Assembly (NCBI GenBank): GCA_965613025.1
Contig: CBFDUE010000002.1
Span: forward strand, 13,974 to 77,973
DNA: 64,000 nucleotides
Reading direction: 5' to 3'
Source of the DNA: an uncultured bacterium
Lineage (GTDB): Bacteria; Desulfobacterota; DSM-4660; Desulfatiglandales; JALVMZ01
This document shows positions 14,452-32,693 of the stretch, in pieces; within the stretch, counting starts at the first letter, position 1, and every line of letters begins with the position of its first letter. Position numbers and translations under genes: made by a program. Below the pieces are notes generated by a model, which saw only the letters and a program-made list of their open reading frames with translations, made no database searches and had not been told where the DNA came from.

Positions 14452-15543
14452 CTAAGCCTTTTTTCTCATTGTTATGCCAATAAATAGACATATCAAAAGG
14501 CCAATTATAACGGCAGCCATTCCATGAGGACCAATCCCCTTAGGTGAGCTTGCAAGCCCAAAATTATGAGAAAATCCGGCCCCCACTATCATACCTATAA
14601 CAAAGATTGCAGCATCTCCATCTCCTTCACCAGAAAGGAAGAGTTGCCTTCCTGGGCATCCTCCTGCCAATGCAAAGGCAAGTCCTGCAAGCGTCATTCC
14701 AGCAAAGTTCCATATGGTCATATTGTGTGCAACAGGCTGTTTTACAAAACCAGGGTGAAATTGCCCTAAGATTAGATTTGTAATAAATGCTACTGTAACA
14801 AAGGCAACCACTCCTGAAAAAAGGTGTGTCTGTCTAAACAGTATCAGATCCCTGAACGCACCCATTGTGCAAAAACGGCTTCTCTGTGCAATAAATCCTA
14901 TTATAAGACCAAAGATTAAAGATACCAATAAAGGTGCATGCATTGCCCCAGGACCTTTTACACTATAAAATAAAATCCCACTCTTTGTTTCACCATCAAC
15001 TGGAGGAAAGATGAAACGAAGAGCGAGAAATCCAAGCATTATTAATGGAAATAGCCATCCTACAGAGGTATATGTAGGTTGAGTGCGTCCCAGATTATAT
15101 CCTGCCTTAAAAAATAGTGTCCCAATCCATATGCCAAAGACAAGTCCTAATAGGCCGAATATGGCATTACCATCACCGCCAGCAAGTCTTAGCAGTGCTC
15201 TCCAGGGGCACCCCAAGAAGACCAGGGCACCGATCATGGCAAAGACCCCAAGGATAAACCTCACTATAGGAGCAGACCCTACTCTTGGTCTAAATTCCTT
15301 AAAGACATATGCTGCAATTAGAGAGCCAAGCACAAATCCGATAATTTCAGGTCTCATATACTGAACAACACCTGCACGATGAAGCCCGATGGCTCCTGCA
15401 ATATCCCTTTCAAAACATGCAACACAGATTCCCATATTTGGAGGATTTCCAAGTTTCTGCAATAGTGGTGCCAGTATCCCAATAATAGCTCCAACCCCAA
15501 TTATTCCCCATTTAGTTGCAAAGATGTTACCTATCCGTTTCAT
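14452..15543 (-). CDS. yedE: YedE/FdhT-family putative selenium/sulfur transporter
   Basis: A polytopic membrane protein with the conserved GICVACFERD Cys motif and its repeat half (RSRFCTMGAFRD). The ATG at 15543 is preceded by GGGAGG. Confidence 0.8.
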   Translation of the reverse strand: MKRIGNIFATKWGIIGVGAIIGILAPLLQKLGNPPNMGICVACFERDIAGAIGLHRAGVVQYMRPEIIGFVLGSLIAAYVFKEFRPRVGSAPIVRFILGVFAMIGALVFLGCPWRALLRLAGGDGNAIFGLLGLVFGIWIGTLFFKAGYNLGRTQPTYTSVGWLFPLIMLGFLALRFIFPPVDGETKSGILFYSVKGPGAMHAPLLVSLIFGLIIGFIAQRSRFCTMGAFRDLILFRQTHLFSGVVAFVTVAFITNLILGQFHPGFVKQPVAHNMTIWNFAGMTLAGLAFALAGGCPGRQLFLSGEGDGDAAIFVIGMIVGAGFSHNFGLASSPKGIGPHGMAAVIIGLLICLFIGITMRKKA

Positions 15544-15613
15544 AAGAACCTCCCAACCCATTAAATATTTAAACTTTATCTGCCAATTGCATAGAGATTA
15601 CAATATCCAGCAT

Positions 15614-21743: not shown

Positions 21744-21866
21744 TATGAAATAAAAAATCCTTGACTTTTCAATTCATTTCATATATTGTGCATAAAATCA
21801 CGAAAGGATTATTTTTGATGATTTAATTAATTATTTCATATTATAAATAAATTTTGGAGGTAATTG

Positions 21867-22826
21867 ATGGGATTGAGAACAATTCTACTTCTGAGTACAT
21901 TGCTTGTCTTGATGGTCTTCTTTGCAGGAGATATGGGAGTATTGGCAGGTACGGGAGAAGGTGTTGTATCATCTTCATCAAGCTCCCATTCATGGTGGTT
22001 CTGGCCACTTGTGCTATTCATTGTAACCTTTCTTATGGGTATCTTTGCGGTTCTGGGTGGAGTAGGAGGAGGGGTGCTTTTTGTCCCTATTATTAGTGGA
22101 TTTTTCCCTTTTCATCTTGACTTTGTAAGGGGTTGTGGACTGCTTGTTGCCCTGTCAGGAGCGCTTGCAGCAGGTCCTGGTCTACTAAAGGCAAACCTTG
22201 CAAGTCTTAGATTGGCCATACCTGTTGCCCTAATTGCATCCACCTGTGCAATAATAGGTGCCATGATAGGCCTTGCCCTTCCAACCAATATAGTACAGAT
22301 TGCCCTGGGAGCTACCATAATTGGGATATGTATTCTTATGGTATCCACAAAGAAATCTGAATTACCAGAAGTGCCAGTGGCTGACAGGCTCTCAACCGCT
22401 TTGAGGATTTATGGTGTCTATCAGGAAGGGAGCTCCGGAGAGATTATTAACTGGAAGATACATCGCACACCCTTAGGCCTTGCCCTATTTATAATTATTG
22501 GCATTATGGCAGGGATGTTTGGACTTGGAGCCGGTTGGGCAAATGTGCCTGTGTTGAATCTGGTTATGGGAGCTCCTTTAAAGATAAGTGTGGCCACGAG
22601 CAAATTTCTTCTCTCTATTACCGATACCTCTGCAGCGTGGATCTATCTCAATCAGGGCTGTGTCATACCCATGATGGTAGTTCCTTCTCTTGTTGGGATA
22701 ATGCTTGGATCCTTTGTAGGGGTCAAACTACTTGTAATTGCAAAACCTGTTATAGTAAGATGGATAGTGATAGGGATGTTGGCCTTTGCAGGGGTAAAGG
22801 CATTGCTTAAAGGATTTGGAATATAG
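21867..22826 (+). CDS. TauE/SafE (DUF81) family anion exporter/permease
   Basis: A polytopic membrane protein with the GGVGGGVLFVPI motif, repeated later (GLGAGWANVPVL). SD GGAGG precedes ATG 21867. Confidence 0.75.
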   Translation: MGLRTILLLSTLLVLMVFFAGDMGVLAGTGEGVVSSSSSSHSWWFWPLVLFIVTFLMGIFAVLGGVGGGVLFVPIISGFFPFHLDFVRGCGLLVALSGALAAGPGLLKANLASLRLAIPVALIASTCAIIGAMIGLALPTNIVQIALGATIIGICILMVSTKKSELPEVPVADRLSTALRIYGVYQEGSSGEIINWKIHRTPLGLALFIIIGIMAGMFGLGAGWANVPVLNLVMGAPLKISVATSKFLLSITDTSAAWIYLNQGCVIPMMVVPSLVGIMLGSFVGVKLLVIAKPVIVRWIVIGMLAFAGVKALLKGFGI

Positions 22827-22839
22827 GAGGTAAAAAGAG

Positions 22840-23262
22840 ATGGTTGAAAAAAATAAGGATATTAAGGCAGGTCCTGAGCAGATACTATATGCCTCAATAC
22901 TTGAGAAGGGGATGCTTATTGGGCTTTTCATACTCTTTATCACATTTATTATATATGTATTTGGTATTATGAAACCCTATATCCCATTGGATGAGATATC
23001 TAAATTCTGGTCAATGAATGTCCACGACTATCTTGATCATGCAAAGATAAAGGGGGGCTGGAGCTGGCTCCTTATGCTGGGATATGGGGATTTTATTAAT
23101 TTTATAGGGATTGCTATATTAGCAGGTGTTACCATTATATGCTATATTGTTATCATTCCTCTGTTGGCAAGGCAGAAAGATTGGGCCTTTGTTATATTTT
23201 CAGTAATTGAGGTGCTTGTCCTATCCCTTGCAGCAAGTGGGCTGCTCAAAGTGGGGCATTAA
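22840..23262 (+). CDS. DUF1634-like small membrane protein (usual TauE partner)
   Basis: 140 aa with 3-4 TM helices, immediately downstream of the DUF81 gene as in many genomes. Assigned by context and topology. Confidence 0.5.
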   Translation: MVEKNKDIKAGPEQILYASILEKGMLIGLFILFITFIIYVFGIMKPYIPLDEISKFWSMNVHDYLDHAKIKGGWSWLLMLGYGDFINFIGIAILAGVTIICYIVIIPLLARQKDWAFVIFSVIEVLVLSLAASGLLKVGH

Positions 23263-23273
23263 TTTAATAAAAG

Positions 23274-23618
23274 ATGGCAAAGGAGATCTTTAAAGAAAAG
23301 ACCGTTAAAGATGTGATGATACCCATAGAGAATTATGCAATAGTTAGGCCTGATGCAACACTTCAAGAGGCAATAATGGTTCTTAGACAATCATATTTTG
23401 TTGACAGGGTCAGAAAGAATGCCATTGTAAAGGTTGTGGATATAATGCTAAGGGTAAAGGGAAGCATTGATTCAGGTGCAGATCTGCTTGATGCCCTTAA
23501 ATTAATTTTCAAAAATAGAATCACCAAACTGCCTGTCTATGAAAAGGATAGACTTGTAGGTGTTATCCGGGATACAGATATCTTTATAACGGTTTCAGAT
23601 ATCCTGACTCAAGAATAG
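23274..23618 (+). CDS. CBS-domain protein
   Basis: CBS-like blocks VKDVMIPIENYAIVRPDATLQEA and ITKLPVYEKDRLVGVIRDTDI. At 114 aa it is short. Confidence 0.65.
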   Translation: MAKEIFKEKTVKDVMIPIENYAIVRPDATLQEAIMVLRQSYFVDRVRKNAIVKVVDIMLRVKGSIDSGADLLDALKLIFKNRITKLPVYEKDRLVGVIRDTDIFITVSDILTQE

Positions 23619-23632
23619 ACCGTTTAAATATA

Positions 23633-25075
23633 TTGTGGACAATGGTTCTTCAACTTTTTCAGTTAAATATAAGGCAGAAGATTGTATTGGGTATTACCCT
23701 GTTTTTTATCGCAACGGGCATCGGGGGTCTACTATCTTACAGAAATCTAAAGGTGATGGAAAAAAAGGTCAAATTTGTGGAGATGGCAGATGATCTAAAC
23801 AACATTATACTTGAGATAAGAAGGTATGAAAAGAACTTCTTTCTGTATGGCCTCTCCGAGCTGGATGCACTGACCCAGAATAAGATATATATTGACAATG
23901 CCCTTATGATACTTGAAAAGCTTTCTAAAGATTTAAGAGACCTTAAAGGAATACCAAAGGTAAAAGAGCTACAGAAGGAATTGATCTCGTACAGAGAGCT
24001 CGTGATACGTATAATGGAATTTGCAAATACAAAGGAGATAGAAGGAATTGAAAAGATTGCCGTGCCCTTGAGAGATAAAGGGAAGAGGCTTGTTGATCTG
24101 ACTCAAGAGCTTGTTCAATTTGAAAGAAAGAGAATACTCCTTATAATTGAACGACTCTACAGTAATCTCTTCATCACTATGCTGCTTCTGCTTCTTTTTT
24201 TGGGATCTCTTGCCTTTTTTGTTATAAGAAAGATTATACAACCCCTCAGGTTAATAGAAGATACTACCATTCAGATAGCAAAAGGAAATTTTAAGCCTAT
24301 TCCTGTTCCAAAAACCAAGGATGAAACTGAACGGGTAATTCGTGCATTTAATCATATGGTTCAAGAGCTTGAAAGGAGACAAGATCATCTGGTTCAGGCC
24401 AAAAAGCTCTCGTCTCTTGGCACCTTAACCTCTGGTATTGCCCATGAATTGAATAACCCTCTAAATAATATATCCACTTCGTGTCAGATAGTCCTGGAAG
24501 AGCTTGATGAGATGGATAAGGAATTCCTGCGAAACATGCTCCTTAACATGGAAAAGGAGATAGCAAGAGCAAGGGATATAGTTAAGGGATTGCTTGAATT
24601 TTCACGGACAAAGGAGTTTATAATTGCTCCTGCAAATCTAAAGACTCTGGTTATGAATGTATGCAAATTAGTTGAAAGCCAACTTCCAGGAGGTATTGAG
24701 ATCAGGGTGGATATACCTGATGATCTTATTGTCCCTATGGACTCTCAGCGAATGCAACAGGTCTTTCTGAATCTCTTTTTAAATTCCATACAGGCGATTC
24801 CTGAGCCCCCTGGTGAGATAAGGGTAACTGCTCATAAAGACAGTTCTAAGGAGGAGGTCATAATAAAGGTAGAAGATACGGGTATTGGGATGGACAAGGA
24901 GACATTATCCCATATATTTGATCCATTCTTTACCACCAAGGAGGTGGGAGCTGGAACAGGTCTGGGACTTTCCATTGTCCATGGAATAATTGAACAGCAC
25001 AATGGCACCATCTCTGTTGAAAGCAAGAAGAATGAAGGAACAAGATTTACAATAACACTTCCCCTTAGACGATAA
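23633..25075 (+). CDS. Sensor histidine kinase (two TM helices, periplasmic helical sensor, HAMP, HisKA, HATPase)
   Basis: H-box SGIAHELNNPLNNI, G1 box EDTGIGM and G2 box GTGLGLSIV. The start is TTG 23633 or ATG 23642. Confidence 0.9.
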   Translation: MWTMVLQLFQLNIRQKIVLGITLFFIATGIGGLLSYRNLKVMEKKVKFVEMADDLNNIILEIRRYEKNFFLYGLSELDALTQNKIYIDNALMILEKLSKDLRDLKGIPKVKELQKELISYRELVIRIMEFANTKEIEGIEKIAVPLRDKGKRLVDLTQELVQFERKRILLIIERLYSNLFITMLLLLLFLGSLAFFVIRKIIQPLRLIEDTTIQIAKGNFKPIPVPKTKDETERVIRAFNHMVQELERRQDHLVQAKKLSSLGTLTSGIAHELNNPLNNISTSCQIVLEELDEMDKEFLRNMLLNMEKEIARARDIVKGLLEFSRTKEFIIAPANLKTLVMNVCKLVESQLPGGIEIRVDIPDDLIVPMDSQRMQQVFLNLFLNSIQAIPEPPGEIRVTAHKDSSKEEVIIKVEDTGIGMDKETLSHIFDPFFTTKEVGAGTGLGLSIVHGIIEQHNGTISVESKKNEGTRFTITLPLRR

Positions 25076-25098: not shown

Positions 25099-26457
25099 AT
25101 GGATAGATACAAGATACTGATTATTGACGATGAGCCTATTGCCCTCCAGAATCTGGAATATATTATGAAAAAAGAGGGCTACGAGGTGGTGTGTGTGGAA
25201 AGTGGCCTTAAGGCACTAAAGCTTTTAGAGAAGAATGAGTTTGACCTGATATTGACAGATCTTAAGATGCAACCAATTGATGGACTCCAGGTGCTTGAAA
25301 GGACAAAAGAGCTCTATCCAGATACAGAGGTTATCCTTATTACTGCCTTTGCCACAGTTGATACTGCTGTTGAGGCAATGAAAAAGGGGGCATATCATTA
25401 TATCTCTAAACCATTTAAACTTGATGAGGTTCGTCATACAGTAAGAAAGGCACTGGAGCAGAGAGCGCTAAAGAAGGAGGTATCCGAATTAAGGGAACGG
25501 GTAAAACACCATGAAGGGGTGCCTCTTATTGTTGGGAAAAGTCAGGCGATACAATCTCTTAAAGAGACCATCAGACAGATAGCTCCCACAGACTGCAATG
25601 TACTGATATATGGAGAGACAGGCACAGGTAAAGAGCTTGTTGCAAAGGCAATACATTATCTTAGCCCAAGGGCAGAAAAGCGATTCCTGGCATTTAACTG
25701 TGGTGCATTTACAGAGGAGCTGCTTGCAAATGAACTCTTTGGGCATGAAAAAGAGGCCTTTACAGGTGCAAAGGGGATTAAGAAAGGGCTTCTTGAAAGT
25801 GCTTCAGGAGGAACCGTCTTGCTGGATGAGATAGGAGATATGCCACAGTCAATGCAGGTAAAATTGCTTCGCGTGCTTCAGGAGAAAAAGTTAATCAGAG
25901 TCGGTGGCACCGAAGAGATTCCCATTGATATCAGAGTAATTGCAGCCACAAACAGAGATCTTAAAAAAGAGGTAAAAAGAGGAAGATTTAGAAAAGATCT
26001 GTTTTATAGATTAAATGTAATAACTCTTGAAGTCCCTCCTCTAATTGATCGTAGAGATGATATACCACTACTTGCATACCATTTTTTAAAGATATTCTCC
26101 CATAATCAGGGAAAGTCTATAGATAAGATCTCTGACCAAGTAATGGATATACTTATGTCCTATGAGTTTCCAGGAAATGTAAGAGAGCTTGAAAACATAA
26201 TAGAAAGGGCGGTTACTCTATGTCGGGGAGAGGTAATAGAGACAAGACATCTTCCCCCTGATCTGCAACAGCTTACCTTCAGAGTAAAGAGACCTGTAAG
26301 AAGGGAGCTACCTACCCTTGAAGAACAAGAAAGGGATTATATCCAGTGGGTTCTTCAAAAGACAGGGGGTAATAAGACTAAGGCAGCGGAGATCTTAGGT
26401 ATTGATAGGGTATCTTTATGGAGAAAATTAAAAAAATATCAACTTGAAGAGGGCTAA
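25099..26457 (+). CDS. Sigma-54-dependent response regulator (NtrC family bEBP)
   Basis: REC domain (IDDE...TDLKM), AAA+ Walker A GETGTGKE, ELFGHEKEAFTGA (GAFTGA loop) and a C-terminal Fis-type HTH. Confidence 0.9.
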   Translation: MDRYKILIIDDEPIALQNLEYIMKKEGYEVVCVESGLKALKLLEKNEFDLILTDLKMQPIDGLQVLERTKELYPDTEVILITAFATVDTAVEAMKKGAYHYISKPFKLDEVRHTVRKALEQRALKKEVSELRERVKHHEGVPLIVGKSQAIQSLKETIRQIAPTDCNVLIYGETGTGKELVAKAIHYLSPRAEKRFLAFNCGAFTEELLANELFGHEKEAFTGAKGIKKGLLESASGGTVLLDEIGDMPQSMQVKLLRVLQEKKLIRVGGTEEIPIDIRVIAATNRDLKKEVKRGRFRKDLFYRLNVITLEVPPLIDRRDDIPLLAYHFLKIFSHNQGKSIDKISDQVMDILMSYEFPGNVRELENIIERAVTLCRGEVIETRHLPPDLQQLTFRVKRPVRRELPTLEEQERDYIQWVLQKTGGNKTKAAEILGIDRVSLWRKLKKYQLEEG

Positions 26458-28463
26458 GAACCTTTACCTACTAATACCTTATCTATAACTTCTTCTATCT
26501 CATCAGCAGTTATAATCTCTATTCCTTCAACAATATGGGGTTCAAGATTTTCAATGTCAGGAAGGTTCTGCTTAGGGAAGACCACAGTCTCAATACCCGC
26601 CCTCTGAGCCGCAAGTATCTTCTCCTTGACTGCCGCAACAGGCAAGATTCGTCCGATAAGGCTCAATTCCCCAGTAATTGCCACACCTGTCTTAGCTTCC
26701 CTTTTAGTTAGCAGTGATATTAATGCCATTGCAATGCTAAGCCCTGCAGATGGCCCATCCTTTGGAATGGCACCTGCTGGAATATGGATATGGATATCCA
26801 TGCCTTTATAGAAATCTGGTGAGATACCAAGTGCTTCAGCATGAGACCTAATATAGCTTAAGGCTATCTGAGCAGATTCTTTAATCACATCTCCAAGAGA
26901 TCCTGTAAGTATCAATTGCTGATTCCCTGGCATGATCTCTGATTCCACAAATATTACGTCCCCTCCAGACTCTGTCCATACAAGTCCTACGGTTACCCCA
27001 ATCCTGGCTTTTAAATTTCTAAATCCCTCTTGATACTTTCTTGGACCAAGTAGATTTTCAACCTCAGAGGCATCCACAACCCTAATTGATTGGGACTTTT
27101 CTGATTCAACCCTGATTCGTGCAAGCTTCCTACATATTTTTGAGATCTCTCTTTCAAGATTCCTAACTCCTGCCTCTCTTGTATAATTGCGGATTATCTT
27201 TTTAATGGCCTCATCACTAAAGTCGGGTGGGTCATTACTCAATGCATTAGCTAAAAGTTGCCTTGGGATCAGATGATTTTTTGCAATCTGAATCTTTTCG
27301 GCTTCTGAATAACCTGTAAATTCAATAACCTCCAGCCTGTCTCTCAATGGATCAGGCAGATCATCCACACTATTTCCTGTCACAATAAACATCACAGCCG
27401 ATAGATCAAAGGGTAGATCAAGATAATAGTCTAAAAATGAACTGTTCTGTTCAGGGTCAAGTATCTCAAGCAGGACTGATACAGGATCACCTTTGAAATC
27501 CTGTCCAATCTTGTCTATCTCATCCAGCATAAACAGTGGATTTGCTACACCCAGGCGTTTCAATTCACCTATTATACGGCCTGGCATGGCTCCCACATAG
27601 GTCCTTCGGTGTCCTCTGAGTTCAGCTTCATCCCTCAGACCAGCAAGCGATAGCCGAGTAAATTTTCTGCCAAGCGCTTTTGAAATGGCCTTTCCTACTG
27701 AAGTCTTTCCAGTTCCTGGAGGCCCTGTAAAACAGAGTATCGGGCCAGATAGATTCTTTATAAATCTCTTCTTTTTCTGTACATCCCTTACAAATTCCTT
27801 CAATTCATTTAGGTTTATGGGTTTACAGAGATAATTTATTGCACCTTCCCTCATGGCCTCTATGGCTGAATCAATGGTTGCATATCCTGTAAAGATTATT
27901 GTCTCAATATTGGGAACAATACGCTTTGCCCTTCGCATAAGTTCAATTCCATCCATCACCTTCATCTTGAGATCAGCAAGCATAAGATCAAAGCCGATTC
28001 TGCTCAGTATCTCAATTGCCTCATTTCCACTCTTTGCCACCTCAACCTCATACCCTTCCTTTAAAAGCACATATTTGAGATTTTCTCTTGCCATTTTCTC
28101 ATCATCCACCACCAGAATCCTAAATGCCTGCCTGGCATATAGTGTTCTTACAGCCAGATAGTCCAGTATCCTCTCCTTTACAGAATTAAGCCCAGTGTGG
28201 TATCTATCCAGTATCTCCTTTGCACGATTGATGTCCAGATTATCATCAGTAAAGTTATTCCACGGAAGATTAACAAGGCAGTCAAGATAGGCAAGGGTAA
28301 TTGTATATTCTGGAGTTGAAGGATCTGTTTTTTCAAGCTTTTCAATCTCCTTGTTTGCAATATCCCTTGCATAGTCTGGCAAGTTCCTCTCCTCAACGGA
28401 TCTTCTTATCTCCATTAGATCCATTGATTCAGATGATTCCTCTTTCTCTTTACGAAAAAACAT
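26454..28463 (-). CDS. lon: LonA-type protease lacking the N-terminal LON domain and carrying an inserted receiver (REC) domain
   Basis: The sequence aligns by eye with E. coli Lon from about residue 250. KERILDYLAV is followed by a roughly 125 aa REC domain (VVDDE, LADLKM, IFTGY, LCKP), then GPILCFTGPPGTGKTS. The catalytic PKDGPSAGLS and KEKILAAQRAG are intact. Confidence 0.85.
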   Translation of the reverse strand: MFFRKEKEESSESMDLMEIRRSVEERNLPDYARDIANKEIEKLEKTDPSTPEYTITLAYLDCLVNLPWNNFTDDNLDINRAKEILDRYHTGLNSVKERILDYLAVRTLYARQAFRILVVDDEKMARENLKYVLLKEGYEVEVAKSGNEAIEILSRIGFDLMLADLKMKVMDGIELMRRAKRIVPNIETIIFTGYATIDSAIEAMREGAINYLCKPINLNELKEFVRDVQKKKRFIKNLSGPILCFTGPPGTGKTSVGKAISKALGRKFTRLSLAGLRDEAELRGHRRTYVGAMPGRIIGELKRLGVANPLFMLDEIDKIGQDFKGDPVSVLLEILDPEQNSSFLDYYLDLPFDLSAVMFIVTGNSVDDLPDPLRDRLEVIEFTGYSEAEKIQIAKNHLIPRQLLANALSNDPPDFSDEAIKKIIRNYTREAGVRNLEREISKICRKLARIRVESEKSQSIRVVDASEVENLLGPRKYQEGFRNLKARIGVTVGLVWTESGGDVIFVESEIMPGNQQLILTGSLGDVIKESAQIALSYIRSHAEALGISPDFYKGMDIHIHIPAGAIPKDGPSAGLSIAMALISLLTKREAKTGVAITGELSLIGRILPVAAVKEKILAAQRAGIETVVFPKQNLPDIENLEPHIVEGIEIITADEIEEVIDKVLVGKGS

Positions 28464-28721
28464 TATTTATACCTCAAATCTTTACTCATCATCCTTTATA
28501 TATCTTAGCCATCATAAAGGCAACCATAAATGAGGACATATGTTGCATATTGCAATATCTGATTTATTCCTGCAACAGGCCTATAACTTACTGATATTAT
28601 TAGAATCATATTAAGGAAGATGCCTTTCTGTTTCAAACTGCAATATTTGTGGTTGATTTTTGATATATTCTAATTTTTTAAAATTTTTAATATATTCAGT
28701 ATGTTAATAGCTTTGGAAATT

Positions 28722-28739
28722 TGGGCATATTAGTTGCTT
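28722..28739 (+). promoter_or_regulatory. Candidate sigma-54 (-24/-12) promoter
   Basis: The sequence tGGGCATATTAGTTGCTt has GG (28724-25) and GC (28736-37) at the canonical 12-nt offset. It lies about 30 nt upstream of the ORF at 28768. Confidence 0.5.
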
Positions 28740-28767: not shown

Positions 28768-28953
28768 ATGGGAATCATGGGATGGTTAGAGAGATTTCAA
28801 AGGATCTTTATGGCAGCCTCATTTGCGGAAGCTGGAGAATGGGACACGGCGAGAAAGATGGTAAAGGAAGGTGAGACAAAAAGGCTGAGCAAAAGGGTCA
28901 GTAAAAGGATTGCCCGCAGGGCACGTCCTATGGCTCGTGTTTACAAGGCTTGA
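28768..28953 (+). CDS. Small basic protein with an ERF..FAEAGE module, hypothetical
   Basis: SD AGGAGG is present. The 61 aa ORF shares LERFQRIFMAASFAEAGEWDTARKMVKE with the N-terminus of the next gene. The C-terminus is Arg/Lys-rich. Confidence 0.5.
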   Translation: MGIMGWLERFQRIFMAASFAEAGEWDTARKMVKEGETKRLSKRVSKRIARRARPMARVYKA

Positions 28954-28993: not shown

Positions 28994-29560
28994 ATGCTGA
29001 GCAAGATAAAGAAAAGGTTTGTTAAGAATAGGGACGTGGAATTAGAGAAAAAGAGTACCCTTACCGAACGATTCCACAAGACGATGGAGGCCATCACTTT
29101 TGCTGAGGCCGGGGCCCCGCAGGCAGCTCAACAGATCATTGAGGAGTATGAGGCAGAGCCAAGGAAGGTCTTAGTTGTGGGCAAAGAGGAAATCTTTTCA
29201 AAGCATGTTATGGATTATGCCTTGGGGTTCGCTGAAAGGATGGGCTATGAAATAGTAGCGCTAAATATTCTACCCTTGCCTACGGATTCTCCTAAATTGG
29301 CTCCTTATTACAGCCTTATTAGTGACGATTTTAAAAACAAGTGTGAAGAGAGTGTGTCAAATTTTTATAATGCCTGCAAAGAGAGAGGAATAGGGTTTCA
29401 GCACTTGGTTAAGATTGGAGACCCTGAGCAGTGCATTAAAGAAACTCATAGGGAGATAAAGCGGATAGAGTTTGTCATTTGTGATCCCGATTTGTGCTCC
29501 AGCATGGCTGATGAGGTGGAGGAGGGGATCATTCCGGTGTTTTGCTTGGCTAATGTCTAA
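28994..29560 (+). CDS. Protein with an N-terminal ERF..FAEAG module and a USP-like (universal stress protein fold) C-terminal domain
   Basis: SD AGGAGG is present. The N-terminus reads TERFHKTMEAITFAEAGAPQAAQQIIEE. The C-terminal KVLVVGKEE...VMDYALGFAERMGYEIVALNIL...VICDPD pattern resembles USP. The call is moderate. Confidence 0.55.
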   Translation: MLSKIKKRFVKNRDVELEKKSTLTERFHKTMEAITFAEAGAPQAAQQIIEEYEAEPRKVLVVGKEEIFSKHVMDYALGFAERMGYEIVALNILPLPTDSPKLAPYYSLISDDFKNKCEESVSNFYNACKERGIGFQHLVKIGDPEQCIKETHREIKRIEFVICDPDLCSSMADEVEEGIIPVFCLANV

Positions 29561-29816: not shown

Positions 29817-31631
29817 TTATTTCACACCATAAAAGAAATATATAATCGTTAGCATTACTACCAGGAAGATGATGGTCATGAAAGCACCGGCCTTGGCGTA
29901 GTCCACGGTGCGATACCCACCCGGGCGCATGATTAAAGCGTTGACCTGATGGGTGGGGAGTACAAATGTGTTGGAGGCGGACAATCCCACAACCAAAGCC
30001 GCCATTCTGGGGTCTCCTCCTGCCATAACTGCCATATTCATACAAAGGGGCACAAGCAAGACAGTGGCTCCCACGTTGGAAATGACGAGGGTAAAAAACG
30101 AAGTCATCACACCAACTATGGCAAGTAAACCAATAGGTGAGACTTGCCCAACAATGTCCAACACCTTCTTTGCGATGAATGCGGCAGTGCCTGTTTGTTC
30201 AAAGGCAATTCCCAGGGGAATCAATCCGCCCAGTAAAAACACAGTCATCCAGTCTACTGAATGGTAGGCCTCGTCAACAGAAAGCACACCGGTGATAATC
30301 ATCCCAAGAGCCCCAGACATGAGAGCAACCGACAGACGGACATCGAAGAAAATTATTTGTGCCAGCGCAACCACGAGCCATATGACAGCCCACTTGGCCT
30401 TTTCAGGCCTCAAAATCTCGCCCTCTAAGGGGGTCGCAAAGGTTAGAATACGGGGCTGGGGTAAATTTTTTATCCTGTGGAATCGATCCCATGGACCCTG
30501 CAGCAGTATCGTATCTCCCATCTTAAGCTTTACATGATTAATCCCCGCATAGTAAATCCTTGAGCCCTTGTTCACAGCCACAGGATTGATTCCAAAGCGC
30601 TCCTGGAATTTTGTCTGTCCCAGGGTCTTACCAATGAGCTCTGAACGAGGAGACACCACTGTTTCCACAAGACCAGCGTTAGTTCGGGCAAACTCATCGG
30701 CAAAAAAATCAAGCCCGGCCTTTAAGGCCCACCCCTTGTCCTGAGCGAGCCTCTGGACCCTTTCGAGCGCCCCCATTATCACGATGTCATCCCCAGGAGA
30801 TATGGTATCAGCCTTGGATGCGGTCAATTTCTTCTTGCCTGTCTTCACGTTTCCTATTGCAACCACCGTCACCAGGTAATCCCTTCTTATATTTAACTCC
30901 TCAAGTGTCTTGGGACCATCGAAATCCTCTGGAATATGGAGCTCATAGGGCTGGTCGAGGGCCTGGTATTCTTGTACCAACATGGCCGTTATACCCTTGT
31001 CTCCCTCTCCTTTGCTGGCAGGAAGCACAAACTTACCGAAAAGGAGAAAATAAAGCACTGCACTGGAAAGCAGACACACACCGATTGGTGTCTGAGTGAA
31101 CAGGCCGAAAGGCTCCAGCTTTTTGCCACCTAAAACCAGGAGGTCATTCAAGAGAATAGTTGGGCTTGCTCCAACGAGGGTCAAGGTTCCACCTATGATG
31201 GCGCAAAACCCCATGGGCATGAGGAGCCGGGAAACCGGGATATCCAGCCGCTTGGCAATACGCTGGGCCGCAGGGAGAAAAAGTGCAGCAGCTCCAATAT
31301 TTTGCATCATTGATGAGATTAAGCCTACTGTCGTAGCAATAAGGGCCATTATCCGCTTCTCACTGTGCCCGCCCAACTTGATTATTGGAGCAGCCACCTT
31401 ATTCATAACACCGGTCTTGTCTAGCCCTGCCCCTATAATTATTACCGCAATGATTGATACAACCGCGTTACTGCTCAGGCCAGAGAAGGCCTGCTGTGGG
31501 GTAACGAGGCCTATCAGCGGCAAAAGCACCATCATAATGATGCCTACCACATCAACCCGCACCCATTCAAAAACGAACAGAACAATGGCAAATGCAAGCA
31601 CAATTAGAGTAAGAATCATATCAGTTGTCAT
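29817..31631 (-). CDS. SLC13/DASS-type permease with two central TrkA_C (RCK_C) domains
   Basis: 604 aa. Two membrane halves flank a soluble insert with a TrkA_C-like pattern (GKTLGQTKFQERFGINPVAV...GDTILLQG). Confidence 0.75.
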   Translation of the reverse strand: MTTDMILTLIVLAFAIVLFVFEWVRVDVVGIIMMVLLPLIGLVTPQQAFSGLSSNAVVSIIAVIIIGAGLDKTGVMNKVAAPIIKLGGHSEKRIMALIATTVGLISSMMQNIGAAALFLPAAQRIAKRLDIPVSRLLMPMGFCAIIGGTLTLVGASPTILLNDLLVLGGKKLEPFGLFTQTPIGVCLLSSAVLYFLLFGKFVLPASKGEGDKGITAMLVQEYQALDQPYELHIPEDFDGPKTLEELNIRRDYLVTVVAIGNVKTGKKKLTASKADTISPGDDIVIMGALERVQRLAQDKGWALKAGLDFFADEFARTNAGLVETVVSPRSELIGKTLGQTKFQERFGINPVAVNKGSRIYYAGINHVKLKMGDTILLQGPWDRFHRIKNLPQPRILTFATPLEGEILRPEKAKWAVIWLVVALAQIIFFDVRLSVALMSGALGMIITGVLSVDEAYHSVDWMTVFLLGGLIPLGIAFEQTGTAAFIAKKVLDIVGQVSPIGLLAIVGVMTSFFTLVISNVGATVLLVPLCMNMAVMAGGDPRMAALVVGLSASNTFVLPTHQVNALIMRPGGYRTVDYAKAGAFMTIIFLVVMLTIIYFFYGVK

Positions 31632-31793: not shown

Positions 31794-32693
31794 TCATGAA
31801 TAATCTGGTGGATGCACATCACAATGAACCTCCTTTACCCCAGGGATGGAACCCACTATATTAAGAACTTCCTTGAATATATCTTTCATGATCCTTTCCT
31901 TCACCTTCTCTTGAACCTCCAAGCGGCTTGCCCCTGTCTTTCTGATTTTTCCAGCCTCTACCTTAAGTTGAACCACCCCCTTTGAGACGGTAACCTCTGC
32001 CTCGCATAAACCAAATAGGGCAGCCTCCACGTGGGTTCTCAAAGCCAGATCAGCCAAATTCTGTAAAACTTTCTCATCAACCCTGAATTGCTCACTCTCT
32101 GCCGCAGTACATATGAGATCGCAGGCCTCATCTATCCCTAACCGGTCAATGCGAATGATCATGTCATAGAGCATTGGATTGTTGATTTCCCTATTGTAAA
32201 GATACCGCGTCCACAGCACCCTCTGCCTGTCATCTGCTTTTATCCTTTTCAGAGCCTCGTCCTTAGAAATCCCCTCTTGTTGCTGCATAAAAGCTACCCT
32301 GCTTTCTAAATCCGCTATTATCCGTACTTTGAGCACATTGGGAAATTCTGGGATCAAAAGATGTCCGGCATGACCATGGTATACCACATTGTCATTCTTC
32401 ACATGCTCCAGGAGGGCTGCCTTTATGTAAAGTAGATAACGCTCGCGACCATGAGTTATTCTTTCAAGAATGGAGGGAGCGTCATGTATGGACTTGGTGA
32501 GCTTCAACTCTGGCACATCAAAAAATTTAGAGGCCTCTATCAGCACCTCCCTACTAATACACTCATAGCCCAATTTGGCTGCCACCTTTTCAGCAATCTC
32601 TTTGCCGTGACTGAAAGACCCTCTGGAAATGGTTATTATGGCCACTGGGGATCTCCTCCTTTCTGCTCGGTTTAAGGTCTGCCCTTGAAGCAT
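31794..32693 (-). CDS. Cytidylate-kinase-like family protein with a C-terminal BON-like domain
   Basis: The N-terminus ITISRGSFSHGKEIAEKVAAKLGYECISREV is a P-loop-like Cytidylate_kin2 pattern. The C-terminal VTVSKGVVQLKVEAG....IPGVKEVHCDV is BON-like. Confidence 0.55.
   Translation of the reverse strand: MLQGQTLNRAERRRSPVAIITISRGSFSHGKEIAEKVAAKLGYECISREVLIEASKFFDVPELKLTKSIHDAPSILERITHGRERYLLYIKAALLEHVKNDNVVYHGHAGHLLIPEFPNVLKVRIIADLESRVAFMQQQEGISKDEALKRIKADDRQRVLWTRYLYNREINNPMLYDMIIRIDRLGIDEACDLICTAAESEQFRVDEKVLQNLADLALRTHVEAALFGLCEAEVTVSKGVVQLKVEAGKIRKTGASRLEVQEKVKERIMKDIFKEVLNIVGSIPGVKEVHCDVHPPDYS

Follow-up and report, generated by a model that had tools for sequence, protein, structure and literature searches.

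A LonA-Type Protease with an Inserted Receiver Domain and Its Possible Place in a Branched Two-Component Pathway of Desulfobacterota

Introduction

How might a histidine kinase act directly on protein degradation? The question is raised by a locus in a 64,000-nucleotide stretch of DNA from an uncultured bacterium of the Desulfatiglandales, Desulfobacterota (assembly GCA_965613025.1, contig CBFDUE010000002.1, positions 13,974 to 77,973 of the forward strand), which is referred to below as the window and to which all coordinates refer. One gene on its minus strand, at 26454..28463, encodes a 669-aa Lon protease with a response regulator receiver domain (REC) inserted ahead of the AAA+ module, here named Lon-RR, and this gene converges on those of a histidine kinase (HK) and a sigma54-dependent response regulator (sigma54-RR). 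Control over AAA+ proteases is normally exerted in trans. It comes from adaptors, RssB and CpdR among them, from anti-adaptors, or from modification of the substrate. A preliminary description of the locus, made by reading the sequence, had predicted a protease gated by phosphorylation. The answer reached here is plain for the architecture and graded for the mechanism. Lon-RR is a LonA-type protease that lacks the N-domain and has a complete REC between its three-helix bundle and its AAA+ module. For its function we favor, at a rough probability of 0.55, a branched two-component pathway in which one kinase would serve two receivers, one governing sigma54-dependent transcription and the other switching on the protease via Asp164, through control of ring assembly or of the ATPase.

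Domain Architecture and Fold

The open reading frame (ORF) listed for Lon-RR in the window, together with Pfam, NCBIfam, and the LonA fold, gives the order three-helix bundle, REC, AAA+, Lon_lid, and Lon_C. Pfam places Response_reg (PF00072) at residues 116-225 with E=5e-26, covering profile positions 1-110 of 111 at 91.5 bits against a gathering cut-off of 30.2, followed by AAA at 243-383, Lon_lid at 406-458, and Lon_C at 463-665 (PF05362, E=1.4e-76). The same scan returned no match to LON_substr_bdg (PF02190), and none to Sigma54_activat (PF00158) with GAFTGA or to a DNA-binding domain; the neighboring sigma54-RR matches PF00158 at E=1e-69. The model for the endopeptidase La equivalog (TIGR00763, 'lon') is matched at 708.9 bits against a cut-off of 608.05, in two stretches that flank the insert, and the E. 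coli-type Lon model NF008053 scores 569.5, under its cut-off of 891. Over residues 112-233, the next-best families in NCBIfam are receivers of the NtrC, AtoC, and ZraR types.

The position of the insert could be fixed by alignment to solved structures. Lon-RR residues 15-108 correspond to residues 9-102 of B. subtilis Lon and residues 233-667 to 101-533, and the two pieces match residues 250-344 and 353-775 of the full-length Thermus Lon, the identity of the core being 53-55% to the Lon cores of solved structures and about 50% to canonical LonA. Because the flanking pieces align contiguously to solved Lons, residues 109-232 can be described as a clean insert of 124 aa that enters at one point and removes nothing. 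Full-length LonA is composed of a globular N-domain, a long helix that contributes the 'tensegrity triangle' and a Tyr gate, the three-helix bundle of the AAA+ module, the AAA+ domain, and the protease domain (Li et al. 2021, PMC8519571). Lon-RR begins directly past the long helix, with the globular N-domain and the long helix gone and the three-helix bundle kept. The missing N-domain reported in the preliminary description is thus borne out by both the Pfam scan and the alignment to full-length Lon; its statement that the match to Lon runs from about residue 250 holds overall, with a start that lies nearer 240-250 than exactly 250. Since the ORF is already the longest one, starting at the first start codon past a stop, an in-frame N-domain cannot be hidden upstream of it.

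These assignments are matched by an AlphaFold2 (AF2) model of the monomer, built on 61 family members, with a mean predicted local distance difference test score (pLDDT) of 79 and a predicted template modeling score of 0.69. Five helices at residues 14-25, 30-44, 51-64, 78-88, and 93-111 form the N-terminal part (bundle residues 15-111 by structure alignment and the model helices; 28131..28421, minus strand), and the last of these reaches the first REC strand within three residues. The REC with its linkers (residues 109-232; 27768..28139, minus strand) is a (beta-alpha)5 domain with strands at 115-119, 139-143, 160-164, 187-192, and 210-213 at a pLDDT of ~85-94. It closes with a 21-residue helix alpha5 (218-238), three residues past which the first AAA+ strand (242-246) starts. 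A Foldseek search with the model found LonA structures only, with target-normalized TM-scores up to ~0.8, and none of the LonA structures matched by Foldseek or by sequence alignment has a REC insert. The Pfam profile and the AF2 secondary structure agree that the insert is a genuine REC fold, a point on which the preliminary description had made its reading depend.

The remaining functional parts follow on the same strand. The AAA+ module and lid (residues 233-460; 27084..27767) contain Walker A K253, Walker B D314/E315, sensor-1 N364, the Arg finger R376, and sensor-2 R434, and the S16 protease domain (Lon_C, residues 463-665; 26469..27077) contains the Ser572-Lys615 dyad. The predicted phospho-acceptor is Asp164 in LADLKM, the codon of which was checked to lie at 27972..27974 (minus strand). 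Every motif that had been named by eye is indeed found in the ORF, namely EIEKLEK, PEYTITLAYLDCLVNLPW, KERILDYLAV, VVDDE, LADLKM, IFTGY, LCKP, GPILCFTGPPGTGKT, PKDGPSAGLS, and KEKIL; with these canonical residues and the full PF00072 profile, the REC ahead of the AAA+ module is complete, as had been claimed.

Conservation of the Family

The next step concerns whether this architecture belongs to one assembly or to a family. The best 120 database matches to Lon-RR are all ~670 aa long and 59-98% identical to it, with PF00072 plus the Lon domains, and a search from a Desulfovibrio-type member gave the same architecture in all of its 120 best matches. Named sources include the isolates Desulfacinum infernum, Thermodesulforhabdus norvegica, and Desulfobacca acetoxidans, as well as Desulfovibrio aminophilus and Nitratidesulfovibrio species, and further members come from many metagenome-assembled genomes of Syntrophobacterales, Desulfobaccales, and Desulfobulbales; the family is widespread among the sulfate reducers and syntrophs of the Desulfobacterota. 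One record is already titled 'response regulator receiver modulated ATP dependent protease'. Clustering at 50% reduces the family to one full-length representative and a fragment, which identifies it as a single tight clade.

In an alignment of 134 members, D121, D164, T192, and K214 of the REC are present in 134/134 and D120 in 133/134, so that a degenerate pseudo-receiver can be ruled out by the invariance of the phospho-acceptor residues. The Walker A Lys, Walker B Asp-Glu, sensor-1 Asn, Arg finger, sensor-2 Arg, S572, and K615 are likewise kept in all 134, which upholds the earlier statement that the Walker motifs, the sensors, and the Ser-Lys dyad are intact.

These data also bear on the possibility that an assembly error or a frameshift joined a response-regulator gene to a truncated lon. 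Nothing was found to speak for such an artefact; the D. vulgaris gene was formerly annotated as 'ATP-dependent protease La, truncation'. Against it stand the single continuous ORF, the recurrence of this length and architecture in more than 130 independent sequences, drawn from numerous assemblies as well as isolate genomes, the ungapped REC region, and an insertion point that is residue-exact relative to solved Lon structures. We therefore consider an artefact, which the preliminary description had named as fatal to its proposal, to be ruled out for all practical purposes.

A second candidate group was also rejected. Long proteins that scored highly in a search of the 50% representatives were considered as REC-Lon variants, and Pfam shows them to be tandem-AAA+ Lons without a REC. 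These proteins (P0121, P0123-P0128, and P0130; 889-1379 aa) have two or three tandem Lon-type AAA+/lid modules, a single Lon_C, and no receiver, and they outscored most Lon-RR relatives in that search.

Two Receivers and One Kinase

The neighboring genes offer a candidate donor for the predicted phospho-acceptor Asp164. A membrane sensor HK with HAMP, HisKA, and HATPase_c domains by Pfam, the presumed phosphodonor, is encoded at 23633..25075 (plus strand), and the sigma54-RR, with REC, Sigma54_activat, and HTH_8 domains by Pfam and an AtoC/ZraR/NtrC-like assignment by NCBIfam, at 25099..26457 (plus strand). Within the 64 kb, receivers occur in Lon-RR and sigma54-RR only, and the two are 45% identical and 77% similar, with no gaps and 114-119 bits; the best receiver of the Protein Data Bank reaches 77.6 bits, which leaves the neighbor as the closest REC found. 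Across 12 genomes, each receiver lineage is ~58% conserved, compared with ~47% identity between the lineages, which is indicative of an ancient duplication. The kinase specificity of a receiver is determined mainly by helix alpha1, and between the two lineages this helix is 57-61% identical, compared with 46% over the remainder of the domain. The identity in alpha1, together with a marginal excess of similarity in same-genome pairs, is suggestive, though short of decisive, of two receivers that may share one kinase.

The arrangement of these genes is conserved. In 13 informative related loci from reference genomes, the HK/sigma54-RR pair adjoins Lon-RR in ten, eight of which are convergent as in the window, and a Usp-like gene lies divergently upstream of Lon-RR in 11; in a Desulfovibrio locus (L013), Lon-RR, HK, and sigma54-RR are on one strand. 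The sigma54-RR gene of the window ends at 26457 and the Lon-RR gene at 26454, confirming the 4-nt overlap noticed earlier, and at 26454-26457 it is the stop codons of the convergent genes that overlap (GCTAAG). Overlapping stops leave no room for a terminator, and the two transcripts should therefore read antisense into one another. The convergent spacing varies among relatives, being 17 nt in one locus (L004) and ~1 kb in another (L001). On the other side of the kinase gene, TauE/SafE sulfite-exporter-family, DUF1634-like, and CBS-domain genes at 21864-23618 (plus strand) lie directly upstream in the same orientation; they may share a transcript with the HK gene and may hint at the sensed signal.

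A related system has been studied genetically. In D. vulgaris, DVU3303 was described as a 'lon-protease RR' that, with the kinase DVU3304 and the sigma54 regulator DVU3305, makes up a three-component system, and it was proposed that the protease needs phosphorylation; the targets of DVU3305 are the operon to which it belongs and the divergently oriented DVU3302-3298, which encodes membrane, hypothetical, and UspA proteins (Rajeev 2011, PMC3333781). The three genes were later found to have pairwise cofitness >0.9 and to be all detrimental in chlorate, which was read as confirming their joint function (Trotter et al. 2023, PMC10102598). Lon-RR-type proteins of Desulfovibrio and Nitratidesulfovibrio are 49-51% identical to the window protein over the full length and are linked to its relatives by reciprocal searches. 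The window has the ~670-aa architecture, the HK and sigma54-RR with a divergent Usp-type operon, and the GTTGC-N5-GCAAC sites of the regulator; as judged from architecture, synteny, and regulatory sites, its Lon-RR is a member of the DVU3303-type family, with orthology drawn via proxies, namely the L013 and Nitratidesulfovibrio proteins. The novelty implied by the preliminary description was consequently overstated, the family having been noticed and named since 2011 (DVU3303, PMC3333781), while its remark that it was aware of no characterized protein of this kind still stands as regards biochemistry. The idea of phospho-activation has been in the literature since 2011 and has had genetic support since 2023, and the family is new in neither respect.

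Taken together, the conserved synteny, the closest REC in the neighbor, and the cofitness >0.9 in D. vulgaris lend indirect support to the suggestion that the adjacent HK/NtrC-type pair supplies the phosphoryl group to the REC of Lon-RR. The cofitness also bears on what the phosphoryl group might do there. Two paralogous receivers beside a single kinase could mean that the REC of Lon-RR is mainly a phosphate sink or competitor, tuning the phosphorylation of sigma54-RR with the protease activity being incidental, and other branched two-component pathways are known to contain such sinks. A sink mutant should oppose the phenotype of the kinase and regulator mutants, however, and the observed cofitness is positive and >0.9; in addition, the invariance of the ATPase and protease catalytic residues in 134/134 members would be hard to explain if proteolysis were irrelevant. 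We hold this explanation to be very unlikely.

The same fitness data weigh on the direction of control. Phosphorylation could instead inhibit the protease, in which case a kinase signal would stop proteolysis and stabilize a target while the sigma54 regulator raises its synthesis. Negative control by the receiver is a feature of the REC-AAA+ proteins NtrC1 and DctD, and a kinase-activated operon beside the protease gene would fit a scheme of synthesizing and ceasing to degrade. Yet the losses of protease, kinase, and sigma54-RR in D. vulgaris give the same fitness pattern, as would be expected most simply of a kinase that activates both outputs. The argument would be undecisive if, in the conditions of those assays, the kinase worked chiefly as a phosphatase. 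Inhibition thus appears rather improbable, if less so than a sink, and because the kinase, regulator, and protease mutants match in D. vulgaris, activation is favored over inhibition and over a pure phosphate sink.

The Divergent Operon and Its Predicted Regulatory Sites

The region upstream of Lon-RR is where the transcriptional branch of the favored pathway would act. A palindromic sequence, GTTGCATATTGCAAT, at 28542..28556, with one mismatch to GTTGC-N5-GCAAC, precedes the start codon of Lon-RR by 79 nt and is a predicted binding site for sigma54-RR; a second, weaker site read from the sequence, ATTGCAGTTTGAAAC on the minus strand, is found at 28630..28644, 88 bp from the first. The site upstream of DVU3303 that was validated for DVU3305 by electrophoretic mobility shift assay has the core GTTGCGATATGCAAC (Rajeev et al. 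2011, PMC3333781). With one mismatch or fewer, GTTGC-N5-GCAAC has three matches in the 64 kb, where 0.6 would be expected by chance. In related loci, the 7.8 kb that immediately precede Lon-RR genes contain 18 copies, or 2.3 per kb, compared with 0.017 per kb in 66 ordinary Lon loci, which corresponds to an enrichment of ~130-fold, and the sites are mostly paired, 53 or 87-88 bp apart, the latter spacing being seen in L001, L003, L004, and L006.

On the far side of these sites begins an operon that diverges from Lon-RR. Its first gene is a small ORF of 61 aa (28768..28953, plus strand) that has AGGAGG as a strong ribosome-binding site and contains an 'AFAEAGEW' motif, followed by a Usp-like protein of 188 aa (28994..29560, plus strand; Pfam Usp at E=2e-3, under the gathering score) with the same type of motif at its N-terminus; NCBIfam has no family for either. 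A sigma54-like -24/-12 element, GGGCATATTAGTTGCT, at 28723..28738 (plus strand) lies 30 nt upstream of the small ORF and has two mismatches to TGGCAC-N5-TTGCW, being weak when taken alone. In D. vulgaris, DVU3303-3305 are marked without a sigma54 promoter and DVU3302-3298 with one (Kazakov et al. 2015, PMC4641369), and the presence of an element only on the divergent side of the window is consistent with this. Scans of the window for sigma70 promoters and terminators gave no more matches than shuffled sequence, and Rfam and tRNA scans of it returned nothing.

The 'AFAEAGE' motif recurs in divergent-operon proteins of L005 (5263-5574), L006 (2007-2360 and 4772-5392), and L012 (4860-5366), and as the variant ALALAEAGE in those of L013; a helix motif of the 'AFAEAGEW' type has one match in 689 kb of control loci. 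The proteins that carry it could be partners or substrates of Lon-RR. This brings up a further alternative, in which the REC is a built-in phospho-dependent adaptor or docking site for substrates on a ring that is constitutively assembled and active, a cis version of RssB and CpdR. The loss of the substrate-binding N-domain, the location of the REC on the substrate-entry side of the AAA+ module, and the NCBIfam similarity to CpdR and RssB receivers (E 1e-15 to 1e-20) fit such a role, as do possible clients that carry a conserved motif next door. On the other hand, the nearest receivers to the REC are those of the NtrC family, whose role is to regulate AAA+ assembly, it is joined rigidly by helices at both ends in the AF2 model with no flexible tether, and the clients are candidates by motif. 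A docking role seems to us unlikely on balance, though a stronger contender than inhibition; it is compatible with a phosphorylation switch on the motor, and both are compatible with the same data.

Some further features of the surroundings may be noted. Just past the Usp-like gene, an anion transporter of the CitMHS/DASS type that has two TrkA-C domains is encoded at 29817-31631 (minus strand), which may be compared with the putative anion transporter DVU3299 targeted by the D. vulgaris system, and beyond it lies a cytidylate-kinase-like gene at 31794-32693 (minus strand), which is also found near Lon-RR in L002, L003, and L004. Elsewhere in the window, a perfect sigma54 promoter consensus, TGGCACCACTATTGCA, occurs at 15458-15473 (minus strand), near the 5' end of an ORF at 14452-15561 (minus strand), and a one-mismatch copy at 15313-15328 (minus strand) is 145 nt from it; this ORF may be another sigma54-dependent gene.

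Proposed Mechanism

The preferred branched pathway can be set out as follows. The membrane HK would phosphorylate two paralogous receivers, that of the sigma54 activator and that of the protease. The phosphorylated activator would bind the pair of GTTGC-N5-GCAAC sites that lies between the divergent genes, thereby turning on the operon of the small ORF and the Usp-like protein, and phosphorylation of Asp164 would switch the Lon-RR protease on. The long REC alpha5, running into the first AAA+ strand, could couple the receiver to the motor, and contacts between receivers on the substrate-entry face could control ring assembly or ATPase competence, as in the REC-AAA+ activators of the NtrC type. 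The six receivers might in this way stand in for the assembly role of the lost N-terminal crown. Control of ring assembly or of the ATPase is favored because the receiver is of the NtrC type, the alpha5 link is continuous, and the REC takes the position of the N-terminal crown of canonical Lon. The architecture, the conserved residues, the synteny, and the conserved binding sites are shown directly by the sequences, and the genetic coupling is known from published work on D. vulgaris. From these we infer which protein donates the phosphoryl group, in which direction the protease is regulated, how the ring assembles, and what Lon-RR degrades.

Several points weigh against this pathway. The AF2 model is that of a monomer, read for its secondary structure and fold. 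Canonical Lon needs the long-helix triangle for repeated degradation of substrates (PMC8519571), and a Lon that lacks this triangle might be weak as a protease or very specialized. The cofitness >0.9 is evidence that the three genes work together and not that phosphorylation activates the protease. Same-genome receiver pairs are only slightly more alike than cross-genome pairs, which is marginal at p ~0.04. In the window, Lon-RR is convergent with the HK/sigma54-RR pair rather than part of one operon with it, and no sigma54 promoter for Lon-RR was found there by eye or by pattern. A keyword search of the literature found no biochemical study of a REC-Lon, whether on phosphotransfer, phospho-dependent activity, or oligomeric state.

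A more elaborate version of the pathway could be imagined, in which the ring of six receivers replaces the LonA crown, the kinase controls both hexamer assembly and substrate gating, and the substrates are encoded next door, either the small 'AFAEAGE' protein and the Usp-like protein or an inhibitor of sigma54-RR, so that one kinase would drive a circuit in which synthesis, by way of sigma54 transcription, is coupled to destruction, by way of Lon-RR. This version is speculative, and we think it doubtful.

If phospho-gating is true, Lon-RR would represent the most direct known wiring from an HK to degradation and a natural switchable Lon. The insertion topology, the invariant Asp164, and the conserved regulator sites translate into concrete constructs and mutants for the biochemistry of a family noticed in 2011. 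We found no prior description, although other papers may exist, of the exact insertion topology, of the family-wide conservation of phospho-acceptor and catalytic residues, of the paired-site layout across Desulfobacterota, or of the recurring 'AFAEAGE' motif in neighbors.

Comparison with Known Systems

With canonical LonA, represented by the Lon proteases of E. coli, B. subtilis, Meiothermus, and Thermus and by human LONP1, Lon-RR shares the three-helix bundle, the AAA+ domain, the lid, the S16 domain, and all catalytic residues; it differs in that it is without the globular domain and the long helix, with its 'tensegrity triangle' and Tyr gate, and has a 124-aa REC. The sigma54 enhancer-binding proteins NtrC, NtrC1, and DctD provide the other half of the comparison. 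They too have an NtrC-family receiver directly N-terminal to an AAA+ domain via a helical alpha5 linker, and in proteins of the NtrC type phosphorylation controls the assembly of the AAA+ ring. The AAA+ domain of Lon-RR, in contrast, is of the Lon (HCLR) clade, and its output would be proteolysis and not transcription.

Phosphorylation is linked to AAA+ proteases in other bacteria as well. In RssB and CpdR, the receivers of which are recognizably similar to the REC of Lon-RR, aspartyl phosphorylation of a receiver governs the action of an AAA+ protease, but these are separate proteins that act in trans on ClpXP, whereas the receiver of Lon-RR is covalently built in. Phosphorylation also controls Lon activity in Xanthomonas, where it is a Ser/Thr modification of a canonical Lon and no dedicated HK-fed receiver is involved (PMC5784255).

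The closest system is that of DVU3303. Both have the same partners, HK, sigma54-RR, and a divergent Usp-containing operon, the same palindromic regulator site, and a sigma54-type promoter on the divergent operon only. The proteins of the Desulfovibrio branch are longer, at 731-768 aa, and Lon-RR, HK, and sigma54-RR are on the same strand in D. vulgaris and in L013, whereas in the window and most Desulfobacterota loci the HK/sigma54-RR pair is convergent with Lon-RR.

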